Below are positions 15,168-18,627 of a DNA stretch of 54,307 nucleotides, in pieces. The stretch's first letter is position 1. Each line of letters opens with the position of its first letter. The stretch is from the NCBI GenBank assembly GCA_050943215.1, contig JBMNOU010000006.1, positions 1-54,307 on the forward strand, written 5' to 3'. Under the pieces are notes generated by a model that did no database searches, had not been told where the DNA came from, and saw only the letters and a program-made list of their open reading frames with translations. This DNA is from Christensenellales bacterium. Lineage in GTDB: Bacteria; Bacillota; Clostridia; Christensenellales; SZUA-584. Made by a program: the position numbers and the translations under genes.

Positions 15168-15368
15168 TTATGAGAAAAAAATTTCTTCAACCGTTTTCCC
15201 ATAAAAATGCGCAAGAGAAATCTTTATTTCGTCTCTCGGTATTCTTAGGCCGTTTTCATAGTTAGATAGTGCTGATGGTGTGATGTTTACTGCTCTTGAC
15301 ACTTCAATGCGTGGTCTTTTGCCACGTAGTTCCAATAATTTCTGACCAATAATAGATGCGTCCGGCAT
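15168..15368 (-). CDS. Cro-like XRE regulator (switch 1)
   Basis: SALSNYENGLRIPRDEIK..LA.FY; divergent from repressor. Confidence 0.85.
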   Translation of the reverse strand: MPDASIIGQKLLELRGKRPRIEVSRAVNITPSALSNYENGLRIPRDEIKISLAHFYGKTVEEIFFS

Positions 15369-15388: not shown

Positions 15389-15489
15389 TTTACGATGTGT
15401 GTACATTCATAATATACCATCGCGACTCTATCATGTCAACACATATTGTAAACATTTTTCTTGCATAATAACACATTCTGTGTTATTAT
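15389..15489. promoter_or_regulatory. Genetic switch 1: divergent promoters and operators
   Basis: Leftward TTGACA-17-TATATT (15439-15411); rightward TTGCAT-17-TATTAT (15461-15489); ACACA-N4-GTRWW at 15389, 15439 and 15471. Confidence 0.75.
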
Positions 15490-15506: not shown

Positions 15507-16046
15507 ATGTTGAAATTTCCAGATATATTAAGAGATTTAAGAATCTCAAATAACTTAACCCAACAGGAATTAGCGTCGAAGTTAAAGATATCGAAAAGCA
15601 CCGTGAGCATGTATGAAAACGGGAAAAGGGAGCCGGATATCGAAACGTTTGAAATAATTGCCGATTTTTTTAATGTCGATATAAATTATCTAACCGGCAA
15701 TGTACCTGTTATGCCTACATACGATATTAAAAAACGGCGTATTGAATTAGACCTATCAATCGAAGATATGGGAAAGGCTGTGGGAGTAAGCAAATCAACA
15801 ATACAAAGATGGGAAACCGGAGATTTTGCTTCTATGAAACGGGATCAAATACCCTTGCTTGCAAACGTTCTGGAAATCACAGCCGAGGAACTAACAGGCT
15901 GGACAGCACGTCCCCGTACAAAGGATGAGTTAGAAATGCTAAATATATATCTTCGTGCAAAAAAAAGCGATAAAGTCGCCGTCAAGGCTTTAGTAAAAGC
16001 AATCGACAAGCTTTTAAAAATAGACGAACAAGGCGATGCCGATTAG
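15507..16046 (+). CDS. Phage repressor with two tandem XRE HTH domains and a C-terminal helix, no S24 domain
   Basis: LTQQELA..ISKSTVSMYENG and SIEDMG..VGVSKSTIQRWETG; GAGGTG RBS places start at 15507. Confidence 0.85.
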   Translation: MLKFPDILRDLRISNNLTQQELASKLKISKSTVSMYENGKREPDIETFEIIADFFNVDINYLTGNVPVMPTYDIKKRRIELDLSIEDMGKAVGVSKSTIQRWETGDFASMKRDQIPLLANVLEITAEELTGWTARPRTKDELEMLNIYLRAKKSDKVAVKALVKAIDKLLKIDEQGDAD

Positions 16047-16092
16047 CATTAGCATATCTATAAGATGTTATGAAATGTGTTGTGAACTTCAT
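15982..16092 (-). CDS. Putative 36-aa antirepressor, antisense to repressor 3' end (not in ORF track)
   Basis: MKFTTHFITSYRYANANRHRLVRLFLKACRLLLLKP; GAGGAGG RBS; SOS-box-like site and TATAAT upstream. Confidence 0.5.
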   Translation of the reverse strand: MKFTTHFITSYRYANANRHRLVRLFLKACRLLLLKP

Positions 16093-16111
16093 GGCGCCTC
16101 CTCAAACTATA

Positions 16112-16123
16112 GAACGTATATTC
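16112..16123. promoter_or_regulatory. LexA (Cheo-box)-like site
   Basis: GAAC-GTAT-ATTC, one mismatch to GAAC-N4-GTTC, directly downstream of minus-strand TATAAT (16131-16126). Confidence 0.55.
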
Positions 16124-16158
16124 TCATTATAGATAGTGTATGTACGTTTTTTGGGACA

Positions 16159-16199
16159 ACATGGTTGTATATGGATGATCTATCCATATACAACCATGT
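16159..16199. repeat. Perfect 18-bp inverted repeat
   Basis: ACATGGTTGTATATGGAT-gatct-ATCCATATACAACCATGT. Confidence 0.9.
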
Positions 16200-16233
16200 C
16201 ATGACAATACATTAATTTCAATTTTAGGTGATA

Positions 16234-16353
16234 TTATGGCAAAATCAAAAAGGTTACCAAGCGGGAGACGGCGCCTTGCGTGATATTGAGTCTTTTTGCG
16301 ATATCCTCTTGGGAAAAGTTCATTAGCGTCCGCTTTCTTTTAATAGCCGTCAT
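16234..16353 (-). pseudogene. Truncated cro-like HTH (switch 2)
   Basis: MTAIKRKRTLMNFSQEDIAKRLNITQGAVS then runs into unrelated sequence; AAAGGAG RBS. Confidence 0.75.
16236..16283 (+). pseudogene. Stump of a second integrase gene
   Basis: AGGTG RBS then MAKSKRLPSG, matching the MPKAKMLPSG start of the integrase at 17569. Confidence 0.7.
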
Positions 16354-16383
16354 CGTACTGCTCCTTTGCGTATCGCATTTATT

Positions 16384-16485
16384 AATGGTGTTGCTATTAA
16401 TTTACCACATGTATCCGTACACGTCAATAGCATTTCTATTAATCTATAAATATTTATTGCATATTATTAGCCAAACTATTATTAT
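16384..16485. promoter_or_regulatory. Genetic switch 2: divergent promoters and operators
   Basis: AATAG-N5-CTATT-like sites at 16384, 16426 and 16466; leftward TTGACG-17-TAAATT; rightward TTGCAT-17-TATTAT. Confidence 0.75.
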
Positions 16486-16502
16486 GGATATAAGAGGTAA
16501 CT

Positions 16503-17111
16503 ATGAATAGAATTAGGGAACTAAGAATTTACAATGGTTTATCGCAGGACGCCCTTGCGAAAATATTAAATGTGCATCAAACGGCCGTGAGCCAATGGGA
16601 AAAAGGCCGCACAACGCCGGATATCGAAGTGCTGCCAAAGATAGCTCAGCATTTTAATGTGAGTGTTGACTATTTGCTTGGAATAGAAACTTCTAATAGT
16701 ACTCATTTAAACAAAGGAGTTAAAATACCCGTCCTAGGTCATATTGCTGCTGGCATCCCGATCGATGCTATTGAGGATATTCTTAACTATGAGGAAATCT
16801 CTGCCGAGTGGACAAAAGGCGGATCCGAGTTTTTTGGATTCAAGGTAAAAGGCTCCAGCATGGAGCCTCGCATCCAAGAGGGCGATGTTGTCATTGTGCG
16901 CAAGCAGCCGGACGTGGAAAGTGGAGATATTGCAGCCGTAATTATTAACGGTGAAAATGCAACGGTTAAAAAAGTAATAAAGCATGATGATGCCTTGTTC
17001 CTAGTTTCGATCAATCCGGCTTATACGCCGATGTACTATACAGCAAAGGAAATTAAATCGTTACCGGTGCAGATCCTCGGCAAAGTTGTGGAGCTGAGGG
17101 GGAAGTTTTAA
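16503..17111 (+). CDS. CI-like repressor, XRE HTH plus S24 autopeptidase
   Basis: HTH; IAAG cleavage site; GSSMEP catalytic Ser; ATVKK catalytic Lys; ILGKV. Confidence 0.95.
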   Translation: MNRIRELRIYNGLSQDALAKILNVHQTAVSQWEKGRTTPDIEVLPKIAQHFNVSVDYLLGIETSNSTHLNKGVKIPVLGHIAAGIPIDAIEDILNYEEISAEWTKGGSEFFGFKVKGSSMEPRIQEGDVVIVRKQPDVESGDIAAVIINGENATVKKVIKHDDALFLVSINPAYTPMYYTAKEIKSLPVQILGKVVELRGKF

Positions 17112-17134
17112 ACATAAAAAGGGGGAATGGCTTT

Positions 17135-17560
17135 ATGGAAGAGAAAATCATTGACAGGGCTAACCCGTCTCTTGTTTTTATTTCTGTTTTTGTCGGGATG
17201 ATCATTTTTGCTGTCACGTATATTTTGGTGTTTTTGTTGTCCTCTTTGATAGCATATCTTGTAATCCAAGTGGGAATACTACGCTTTCTATTAAGCTTTA
17301 TTACTGGCGGATATGTAGACTATCCGATTTGCTTAATAAGCGCCATTTTATCATATGCTCTTATAGTTTTCTTGCTAGAAAAAATTAATAATGGTGACCC
17401 AAGATCGGAAAAGATGTCGCTTCGTATCTTAGGAATAGCAATCGTTTTGATTCATGTTGTCTTTTTAGTTTTAAATATTATTTATGGTAATTTTATAGGA
17501 TCAAACATCGCACAATTAATTGTTGGACTGGTTTTAATATACAAGTCCACAAAACTCTAG
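17135..17560 (+). CDS. Multi-TM phage membrane protein
   Basis: About four hydrophobic segments; lies between repressor and integrase. Confidence 0.75.
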   Translation: MEEKIIDRANPSLVFISVFVGMIIFAVTYILVFLLSSLIAYLVIQVGILRFLLSFITGGYVDYPICLISAILSYALIVFLLEKINNGDPRSEKMSLRILGIAIVLIHVVFLVLNIIYGNFIGSNIAQLIVGLVLIYKSTKL

Positions 17561-17568
17561 GATCGACT

Positions 17569-18627
17569 ATGCCTAAAGCAAAAATGCTCCCGTCCGGAAA
17601 CTGGCGTGTCCAAGTGTTTATCGGGTATAAAATCAACGATTCCGGAAAAAAAACAAAATGCTATAAGTCCTTCACTCATCCGTCTAAAACAGAGGCCGAG
17701 TATCTTGCCGTGCAATACAAACGAGAGAATGACGATATTGCAACCGTATATGATATCACCGTCCGAGAAGCTATGAATAATTACGTGAAATCCAGAACAA
17801 ACATCCTGTCTCCGACTACAATTCAAGGTTATGAGCAGATCATCCGGAACCATATGAAAAATATTATGGATATCAAGATCAACAAGCTCACACAGCAGCA
17901 AATCCAGCAGGCTATTAATGCAGACGCCAAAAATTTATCCGCTAAAACAATAAAAAACGCTCACGGCCTGTTGTCCGCCGTGCTCAAGCTATATCGGCCA
18001 AACTTGAGACTGACAACGTCGATGCCAAAAGAAAAAAAGAAGCTCAAGGAACTGCCGTCTCCGCAGAAATTGTTTGACGCTGTAAAAGGAACCAAGATTG
18101 AACTTCCTGTTCTGCTGGCCATGTGGCTGTCTTTTTCTATGTCTGAAATCCGAGGAATAAAAAAGAGCGATATAAAAGATGGCGTATTAACACTTAACAG
18201 ATCGATCGTTGATATTAAAGGAAAACCGATTGAGAAAAATGAAATGAAAGAGTATGAACGCACTCGCAAGCTCGAGATCCCGCCGTACATTATGAGCCTA
18301 ATAGAGAAATGCGAAGGGGAATATATCACAACACTGACAGGACAAGCAATTTACAAGCGCTGGACGCGCTTGCTTAAAAAAAACGGCATACCTCATATCA
18401 CATTTCACGACTTGCGCCATGTCAACGCATCCGTCATGCACCTGCTCGACATACCGGATAAGTATGCTATGGAACGCGGCGGATGGAAAACAGACAAAAC
18501 GATGAAGGCTGTTTATCAAAATGTTTTCTCTGACGAACGGATAAATGTTGATAAAAAAATAAACGAATATTTTGAAGGTTTTATACAAAATGAAGATACC
18601 GTATCACACGAAATATCACACGAATAA
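17569..18627 (+). CDS. int: Tyrosine recombinase / phage integrase
   Basis: LSPTTI.GY, FHDLRH, GGW, catalytic Tyr in AVYQN; abuts tmRNA 3' end. Confidence 0.95.
   Translation: MPKAKMLPSGNWRVQVFIGYKINDSGKKTKCYKSFTHPSKTEAEYLAVQYKRENDDIATVYDITVREAMNNYVKSRTNILSPTTIQGYEQIIRNHMKNIMDIKINKLTQQQIQQAINADAKNLSAKTIKNAHGLLSAVLKLYRPNLRLTTSMPKEKKKLKELPSPQKLFDAVKGTKIELPVLLAMWLSFSMSEIRGIKKSDIKDGVLTLNRSIVDIKGKPIEKNEMKEYERTRKLEIPPYIMSLIEKCEGEYITTLTGQAIYKRWTRLLKKNGIPHITFHDLRHVNASVMHLLDIPDKYAMERGGWKTDKTMKAVYQNVFSDERINVDKKINEYFEGFIQNEDTVSHEISHE
18602..18624. repeat. Direct repeat, putative integrase arm sites
   Basis: TATCACACGAA at 18602 and 18614, close to the att core. Confidence 0.6.

Follow-up and report, generated by a model that had tools for sequence, protein, structure and literature searches.

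How does a prophage sense damage to its host's DNA when its repressor has no autocleavage domain? Many gut Firmicutes prophages carry short XRE repressors without a cleavage domain, and their DNA-damage sensing is mostly unexplained. A contig of 54,307 nucleotides (nt) from a Christensenellales bacterium (JBMNOU010000006.1; this whole stretch is called the window below) contains the lysogeny end of such a prophage. Antisense to the 3′ end of its repressor gene lies a short, unannotated open reading frame (ORF). Sequence conservation and models of the complex make it likely that this ORF is a real gene for a 36-amino-acid (36-aa) antirepressor of that repressor, acting by the steps set out below. 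It would be a candidate answer for one family of repressors lacking the Peptidase_S24 domain (S24-less), in the form of a gene of 32–39 aa that annotation pipelines miss. The elements of the switch are the following (HTH, helix-turn-helix; SD, Shine–Dalgarno sequence; CDS, coding sequence).

15507–16046, plus strand: prophage repressor, 179 aa, with an HTH_3 domain, a second, inserted HTH_3 domain and a C-terminal helical hairpin, without S24
15921–16013, plus strand: repressor residues 139–169, the hairpin, presumed to dimerise and predicted to dock the peptide (structure and complex models)
15982–16092, minus strand: small ORF of 36 codons, putative antirepressor (ORF list and conservation; coordinates include the stop codon)
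16097–16103, minus strand: SD GAGGAGG, 4 nt ahead of the ATG (from the sequence)
16111–16124, no strand assigned: LexA-like (Cheo-type) 14-nt box, one mismatch to AGAAC-N4-GTTCT, between the −10 hexamer and the SD
16126–16131, minus strand: −10 hexamer TATAAT, 1 nt from the box, without a recognisable −35
15958–15980, minus strand: weak terminator-like hairpin (5 pairs) and a run of eight T; lies within the repressor CDS and immediately follows the stop of the small ORF
15411–15439, minus strand: strong sigma-70-type lytic promoter, TTGACA-17-TATATT (11/12, with TG), presumed target of repression
15168–15368, minus strand: Cro-like HTH gene that heads the early lytic operon and runs divergently from the repressor

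An earlier, sequence-only reading of the window had described the repressor as lacking the S24 autocleavage domain, and a Pfam-type domain scan agrees, finding two HTH_3 domains and no Peptidase_S24. In a structure model (predicted local distance difference test score, pLDDT, 87) the protein ends in a two-helix hairpin formed by residues 139–152 and 157–169. The tail has no Pfam match of any kind at E-values up to 10, the SinI/SinR dimerisation domain included, and a profile of the hairpin retrieves only one unrelated chain from the PDB (E 0.62). Close full-length relatives of the two-HTH repressor were not found: it is a singleton among 74 matches in a collection of 5.8 billion clusters, a region-restricted search returned only the protein itself (2 candidates), and searches of phage records with blastn and tblastn yielded no more than a single HTH-only match. 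Single-HTH repressors of 116–124 aa share its first HTH and its hairpin, so the window repressor belongs to this hairpin family with a second HTH inserted. The inserted domain (residues about 73–138) is unique to the window repressor among 16 aligned family members. The sole solved chain that matches the family profile nearly end to end is PDB 3op9, the Listeria innocua regulator Pli0006 (positions 1–104 of 110, E 2e-12), which is also the top fold match of the single-HTH model.

Between the repressor gene and the lytic promoter lies a palindrome with 6-bp arms and a 3-nt spacer (15470–15484), and similar ACAC...GTGT palindromes stand at the equivalent place in L003/L212. Judged by their sequences, palindromes of this type are probably the repressor's operators, and such candidate operators imply that the repressor binds as a dimer.

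The small ORF begins with an ATG at 16092–16090 and stops at 15984–15982. Its codons 1–15 are intergenic, and codons 16–36 overlap the last 21 codons of the repressor, stop codon included, over 65 nt. The ORF, its GAGGAGG ribosome-binding site, the TATAAT, the LexA-like box and a palindrome within the overlap (TAAAAGC-N9-GCTTTTA, 15994–16000 and 16010–16016) all lie where the sequence-only reading had placed them. At this single locus the features do not go beyond chance, as judged by the box count (the window has 2 one-mismatch boxes where 1.09 are expected), the missing −35 and an antisense frame that would be open with a probability of 0.235 given the window repressor's amino acids. Significance therefore comes from conservation in relatives.

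Relatives were collected with a profile hidden Markov model of the repressor's C-terminal hairpin. The profile matched in 5 of 40 genomes of the host's family (its own included), in 8 of 401 genomes of the order, in 6 of 23 genomes of a second family (f27) and in two viral contigs; in a class-wide genome sample, only weak, chance-level hairpin matches appeared besides the host's own genome. In a large protein collection, 20 proteins match among 8000 candidates scored, some of them named as Clostridia or Eubacteriales regulators. The family considered here consists of 14 loci with the repressor C-terminal hairpin, window included, which carry the small ORF in the following states.

9 of 14 loci (window, L223, L202, L213, L215, L217, L222, L218, L219): intact ORF with SD and ATG in the same antisense frame
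1 of 14 (L221): free-standing ORF of 35 codons that keeps the invariant residues and stops 2 nt before the repressor stop codon
1 of 14 (L216): damaged, start position reads AAG
1 of 14 (L214): damaged, frame broken at an A-run
1 of 14 (L220): damaged, stop at codon 2
1 of 14 (L212): no copy of the small ORF

The nine intact ORFs have 32–39 codons and start 28–70 nt past the repressor stop, and an SD-like pentamer stands 4–8 nt ahead of the ATG in all nine and in L221. The decayed or missing copies (L214, L216, L220, L212) fit prophages locked in lysogeny or, for the A-run, an assembly error.

Controls were drawn from 171 HTH-only loci fetched in the first locus scans, 170 of which had an HTH ORF; after removal of duplicates (same last 30 residues) and of loci with less than 170 nt downstream, 84 were left. 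An antisense ORF with SD and ATG, of at least 30 codons and overlapping at least 10 repressor codons, is present in 10 of 14 family loci and in 2 of 84 controls (Fisher 4e-9, relatedness uncorrected), where the ten include an out-of-frame ORF in L214 and L221 is not counted. An antisense ORF together with a LexA-like core is found in 5/14 family loci and 0/84 controls (Fisher 3e-5, again uncorrected for relatedness). The expectation that homologous S24-less repressors would keep this arrangement is thus borne out, with the antisense ORF and SD kept and a LexA-like box in six loci, far above the controls.

These counts bear on the simplest alternative, in which the ORF is a chance by-product of conserved repressor amino acids and AT-rich flanks. 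Several observations are compatible with it: the antisense frame is open with a probability of 0.23–0.81 per ORF-bearing locus, the box count of the window alone is at chance level, and the peptide was never predicted by gene callers, its profile finding a single match among 1.84 billion protein representatives, an unrelated repetitive protein. Chance is nonetheless a very improbable explanation, given the excess over controls, an ATG and SD that lie outside the repressor CDS, LexA-like boxes that recur at the same place though the flanking DNA otherwise differs, and the codon bias and free-standing copy described next.

Four residues are invariant across the aligned peptides: Arg23, Leu24, Cys29 and Leu31. 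Two conserved Asp codons of the repressor have to be GAC to yield the invariant Arg and Cys, since with GAT the peptide would have His and Tyr in their place. Asp codons are distributed as follows.

Overlap, 10 ORF-bearing loci: GAC 18, GAT 2
Rest of the same genes: GAC 23, GAT 47

The bias of the overlap against the rest is strong (Fisher 5e-6), and both GAT codons in the overlap belong to the window's variable tail. In the host, GAC makes up 0.36 of Asp codons overall and 0.41 of those in the same contexts. The relatives have 31–57% amino-acid identity to the window's hairpin, so that inherited synonymous sites should be largely randomised, and the GAC bias therefore points to dual coding. 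As far as codon choice can tell, this synonymous bias shows selection on the peptide frame.

The ORF of L221 (1388–1495, plus strand of that locus) does not overlap the repressor CDS. Its DNA can be aligned with a repressor 3′ end: 24 of 36 bases agree with L217, a score reached by 6 of 300 shuffles. The repressor-sense frame is broken there and the peptide motif kept.

The same data speak to a second alternative, that the antisense transcript is the functional product and the ORF secondary, with a LexA-controlled convergent promoter acting through transcriptional interference or cleavage of an RNA duplex. Such an arrangement resembles lambda oop, a short convergent transcript that overlaps the 3′ end of a regulator gene, is reported to be LexA-sensitive and acts as RNA. 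It also resembles an earlier proposal for aimX, the antirepressor gene of Bacillus arbitrium phages. The promoter, the box and the 65-nt overlap convergent with the repressor would all serve an antisense RNA, as would the weak hairpin and T8 run after the ORF, and the AimX authors leave room for a cis role of antisense transcription (10.1101/2025.11.23.689978). We consider this alternative unlikely. Nine loci preserve SD and ATG in a single frame, codon choice is biased towards particular peptide residues, and in L221 the peptide is retained by an ORF that lies clear of the repressor CDS. The antisense transcript folds no better than shuffled sequences (z −0.26), and the terminator-like hairpin at 15958–15980 was not seen when the relatives' sequences were read. 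For aimX itself, a recoded allele works and a start-codon mutant fails, and the peptide rather than the RNA relieves repression (10.1101/2025.11.23.689978). The present locus differs from lambda oop in that its translated frame is conserved and selected.

A translated antirepressor would be switched by the host's SOS system if its promoter is under LexA. The host carries lexA with a box upstream (contig C42, upstream of 6779), and its Y-family polymerase gene has a box 21 nt upstream (G000:C101:1540–1553) with the same ten specified bases as the window box; no box occurs in the 350 nt read at the host recA. The 2.07-Mb genome holds 42 AGAAC-N4-GTTCT sites, 4 perfect and 38 with one mismatch. 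A LexA-like box precedes the SD in six of the 14 loci (window, L223, L202, L213, L215 and L221). In L223, L202, L213 and L215 the boxes (core with at most one mismatch) lie between a −10-like hexamer and the SD, and the GAAC-N4-GTTC core is perfect in L213 and L221. L221 has two LexA-like boxes, the first, with the perfect core, directly after a TTGACA-17-TATTAT promoter. In the window the LexA-type operator motif, 1 nt from the −10, overlaps the putative antirepressor promoter, and on these sequence grounds the small gene is probably LexA-controlled. L216, L217 and L222, which are without a box, resemble one another in the 110 nt ahead of the small ORF: all three have tandem repeats of the TCGACA type and an AT-rich palindrome. 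These shared elements hint at a different regulator.

Two further elements lie upstream of the −10 hexamer in the window. TTGTCC at 16154–16159 is 22 nt upstream of TATAAT, and the spacing is likewise 22 nt in L202 and 23 nt in L223. This is too distant for a normal −35, and the element may be a factor site or part of the neighbouring plus-strand gene. Just upstream of the small ORF's −10, at 16159–16199, an inverted repeat has perfect 18-bp arms around a 5-nt loop, with no T-run on either side and no second copy in the genome. It might serve as an insulator or operator, or be the scar of a recombination event.

The predicted target of the peptide is the repressor's own C-terminal hairpin. The full-length repressor (16-row alignment) was modelled with the peptide (10-row alignment) in three runs, which scored 0.61, 0.53 and 0.61; the best of three controls scored 0.00. 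Among solved complexes, 58 of 80 came up to the mark that the pair reached here, and among mismatched pairs 2 of 110 did. The runs agree in at least 76% of contacts, with a partner pLDDT of at least 70. The modelled interface joins repressor residues 137–172 to peptide residues 3–33 and leaves the HTH domains untouched. Its lowest-error pairs (repressor 162 with peptide 25/29, 166 with 22/25/26, 159 with 29/32/33 and 169 with 21/22) indicate antiparallel packing of the peptide's C-terminal helix on repressor helix 157–169, centred on the invariant Cys29 and also Leu25 and Leu26. Peptide residues 21–33 are encoded opposite repressor residues 163–176, so in the model the binding helix and part of the helix it binds share the same DNA.

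The model also bears on whether a real peptide might have another target or role, for example as a type-I-toxin-like membrane peptide held by the 3′ end of the repressor mRNA, or as a binder of LexA or of a second, S24-type repressor in the prophage region. The peptide is small, cationic and leucine-rich, it is convergent with and overlaps another transcript, and it falls in no known family: Pfam (E up to 10, four peptides) and PHROG give no match, and a PDB search with the peptide profile returns no chain at E up to 10. These properties would suit a role of this kind, which is slightly less probable still than an antisense RNA. Arg or Lys interrupts every hydrophobic run in the alignments (by reading; no transmembrane predictor was used), so there is no membrane-spanning stretch. 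In the model the peptide docks specifically on the repressor hairpin, whereas all three controls score 0.00, and measured against the 84 control loci the peptide occurs only with this hairpin family.

The sequence-only reading had gone further and taken the peptide for a mimic of the repressor's C-terminal helix, on the basis of a gapless match ascribed in part to the palindrome. The overlay is real and weak: the best ungapped overlay of the window peptide on the repressor tail has 8 identities, a count reached by 83 of 2000 shuffles, and across loci the corresponding figure ranges from 0 to 1473 of 2000. In 6 of 10 loci the best overlay matches the peptide's Tyr to the invariant repressor residue Tyr148 and the peptide's C-terminal Leu pair to Leu169/170; the codon for the peptide's Tyr is not part of the overlap. 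At the level of sequence this is suggestive of a hairpin-like mimic. The palindrome is present in the window, and its arms are not kept in the relatives' codon tables, so it was rejected as an explanation of the small ORF family.

The switch could then operate as follows. In the lysogen, host LexA on the box overlapping the transcription start would keep the small gene off, and its removal after DNA damage would allow the peptide to be made. The amphipathic C-terminal helix of the peptide (Arg23, Leu24, Cys29, Leu31) is predicted to pack antiparallel on repressor hairpin 137–172, where it would replace the partner subunit and leave the S24-less repressor unable to oligomerise on its palindromic operators. 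The lytic promoter at 15411–15439 would then fire. A smaller contribution in cis may come from convergent transcription that enters the repressor gene.

The surroundings are those of a prophage immunity region, with RecT and DnaD/DnaC-like loaders downstream of the cro-like gene on the same (minus) strand. A second immunity module (16234–17111) lies between the small ORF and the integrase gene.

17569–18627, plus strand: integrase, prophage lysogeny end
16503–17111, plus strand: repressor with XRE and Peptidase_S24 domains, second immunity module
16234–16353, minus strand: truncated cro-like gene of 39 codons, divergent from the S24 repressor, matching only positions 1–29 of the 55-position HTH_3 model

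Transcription from this broken S24-module switch would head toward the small ORF.

Several points weigh against the antirepressor interpretation. The S24-type repressor at 16503–17111 lies in the same prophage region and could itself sense SOS. At the window's own promoter, a consensus scan makes no call, since only a −10 and no −35 is present; the box has one mismatch, and the 4-nt spacing between SD and ATG is short. Among the relatives, no LexA-like box is found in L212, in L214 or in the six loci of f27, three of which have a different palindrome in its place; LexA control is thus a feature of part of the family and SOS control is not general. The loci are few, four of 14 have a damaged or missing ORF, antisense openness is only mildly improbable at the ORF-bearing loci, and the Fisher values overstate the case because the loci are related. 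The alignments behind the complex model were self-built and shallow (the 16 and 10 rows given above) and lie outside the tool's calibration. Solved complexes of the same design exist (1b0n, 9sf2), so the model's pass may lean on that likeness. Set against this are the conserved ORF, SD and box, the GAC bias, the L221 copy and the complex model, all of them computational lines of support, and the AimX/AimC precedent; together they favour the antirepressor proposed by the sequence-only reading.

If so, the locus would show with unusual clarity how one stretch of DNA can encode, on its two strands, two proteins predicted to interact; the dual-coding constraint can be measured, and L221 offers a natural, 'uncoupled' control. 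The AimX principle, published in late 2025 on arbitrium phages of Bacillus, would thereby reach prophages of another class that have no arbitrium system. Prophage inducibility might also be predicted by scanning the 3′ flanks of S24-less repressors for a LexA box, an SD and a short antisense ORF. A broader view is that this is a natural sense/antisense protein pair whose binding helix is encoded opposite part of the helix predicted to be bound, so that the specificities are hard-wired to co-evolve on about 40 bp. Overprinting would have persisted as one lineage of Clostridia prophages diversified and been resolved once, by duplication of the repressor 3′ end in L221, and AimX-type micro-antirepressors would exist independently of arbitrium, purely LexA-gated. 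We offer this view tentatively, as a proposition that falls a little short of an even chance.

Among known systems, Tum of phage 186 and AntC of N15 are LexA-repressed antirepressors of Gram-negative phages. In the Gifsy phages the prophage repressor is likewise reported to be uncleaved, with SOS acting via a LexA-repressed antirepressor gene (PMC3121763). The likeness would lie in SOS acting through such a gene, the LexA-like motif here overlapping the promoter. The Gram-negative antirepressors differ in being larger and non-overlapping and in their hosts and repressor families; the negative Pfam and PHROG scans are the extent of the sequence comparison with them.

SinI/SinR (PDB 1b0n) shares with the present pair an XRE HTH repressor with C-terminal helices, which SinR uses for oligomerisation. 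The SinI gene is separate and non-overlapping, is homologous to the SinR tail and is not known to be under LexA control. Here the similarity between peptide and repressor tail is marginal, and there is no Pfam match to the SinI/SinR dimerisation domain. In SinI/SinR a small helical antagonist forms a heterocomplex that replaces the homo-oligomer, as discussed in the AimX preprint, whose authors liken AimX/AimC to SinI/SinR (10.1101/2025.11.23.689978).

The closest likeness is to AimX/AimC. The gene aimX of the Bacillus arbitrium phages phi106, W23 and BMBtp14 encodes an antirepressor of 29–80 aa (Kabel et al., 10.1101/2025.11.23.689978). In phi106 it is a 29-aa ORF that closely follows a LexA site and shares 30 bp, in antisense, with the 3′ end of aimC. 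AimX binds the C-terminal oligomerisation domain of AimC, blocking oligomerisation and DNA binding (10.1101/2025.11.23.689978). The window and the relatives with an intact ORF likewise have a very small ORF that is convergent with, and overlaps the 3′ end of, a short repressor without a cleavage domain. As in phi106, with its LexA site, the small ORF here lies downstream of a LexA-like box; a divergent cro-like gene and then replication genes follow in both. For the peptide here, the complex model predicts docking on the repressor's C-terminal hairpin. The differences are an overlap of 65 nt here against 30 bp in phi106, a Clostridia-type rather than a Bacillus host, and a small ORF that is not downstream of aimR-aimP. 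The minus strand at 16132–17560 has no plausible AimR/AimP ORF, the ORFs there being a 39-aa HTH fragment and others that run antisense to different genes, and none of the 13 relatives has a large same-strand ORF upstream of the small ORF, in each case without an AimR profile search.

Homology is likewise not detectable: peptide and hairpin profiles run against the PDB find neither AimX nor the AimC oligomerisation domain. The repressor family profile does match 9sf2_A, the phi106 repressor solved with AimX, over positions 4–79 of 110, that is, over the HTH and linker only; 9sf2_A is also among the weak fold matches of both repressor models (E 5e-3 to 8e-3), and SinR in 1b0n is likewise weak. 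The AimX authors note that very few aimC/aimL homologues occur outside arbitrium systems (10.1101/2025.11.23.689978). A literature search found no description of this repressor/peptide family, the supplementary lists of the AimX preprint, which possibly hold relatives, being outside its scope. With the tests of arbitrium linkage and of homology both failing, the module would work like AimX/AimC and stand outside that family. By analogy, and as part of the explanation favoured here as a whole, its design is probably that of AimX/AimC and SinI/SinR, placed under LexA alone without an arbitrium module.

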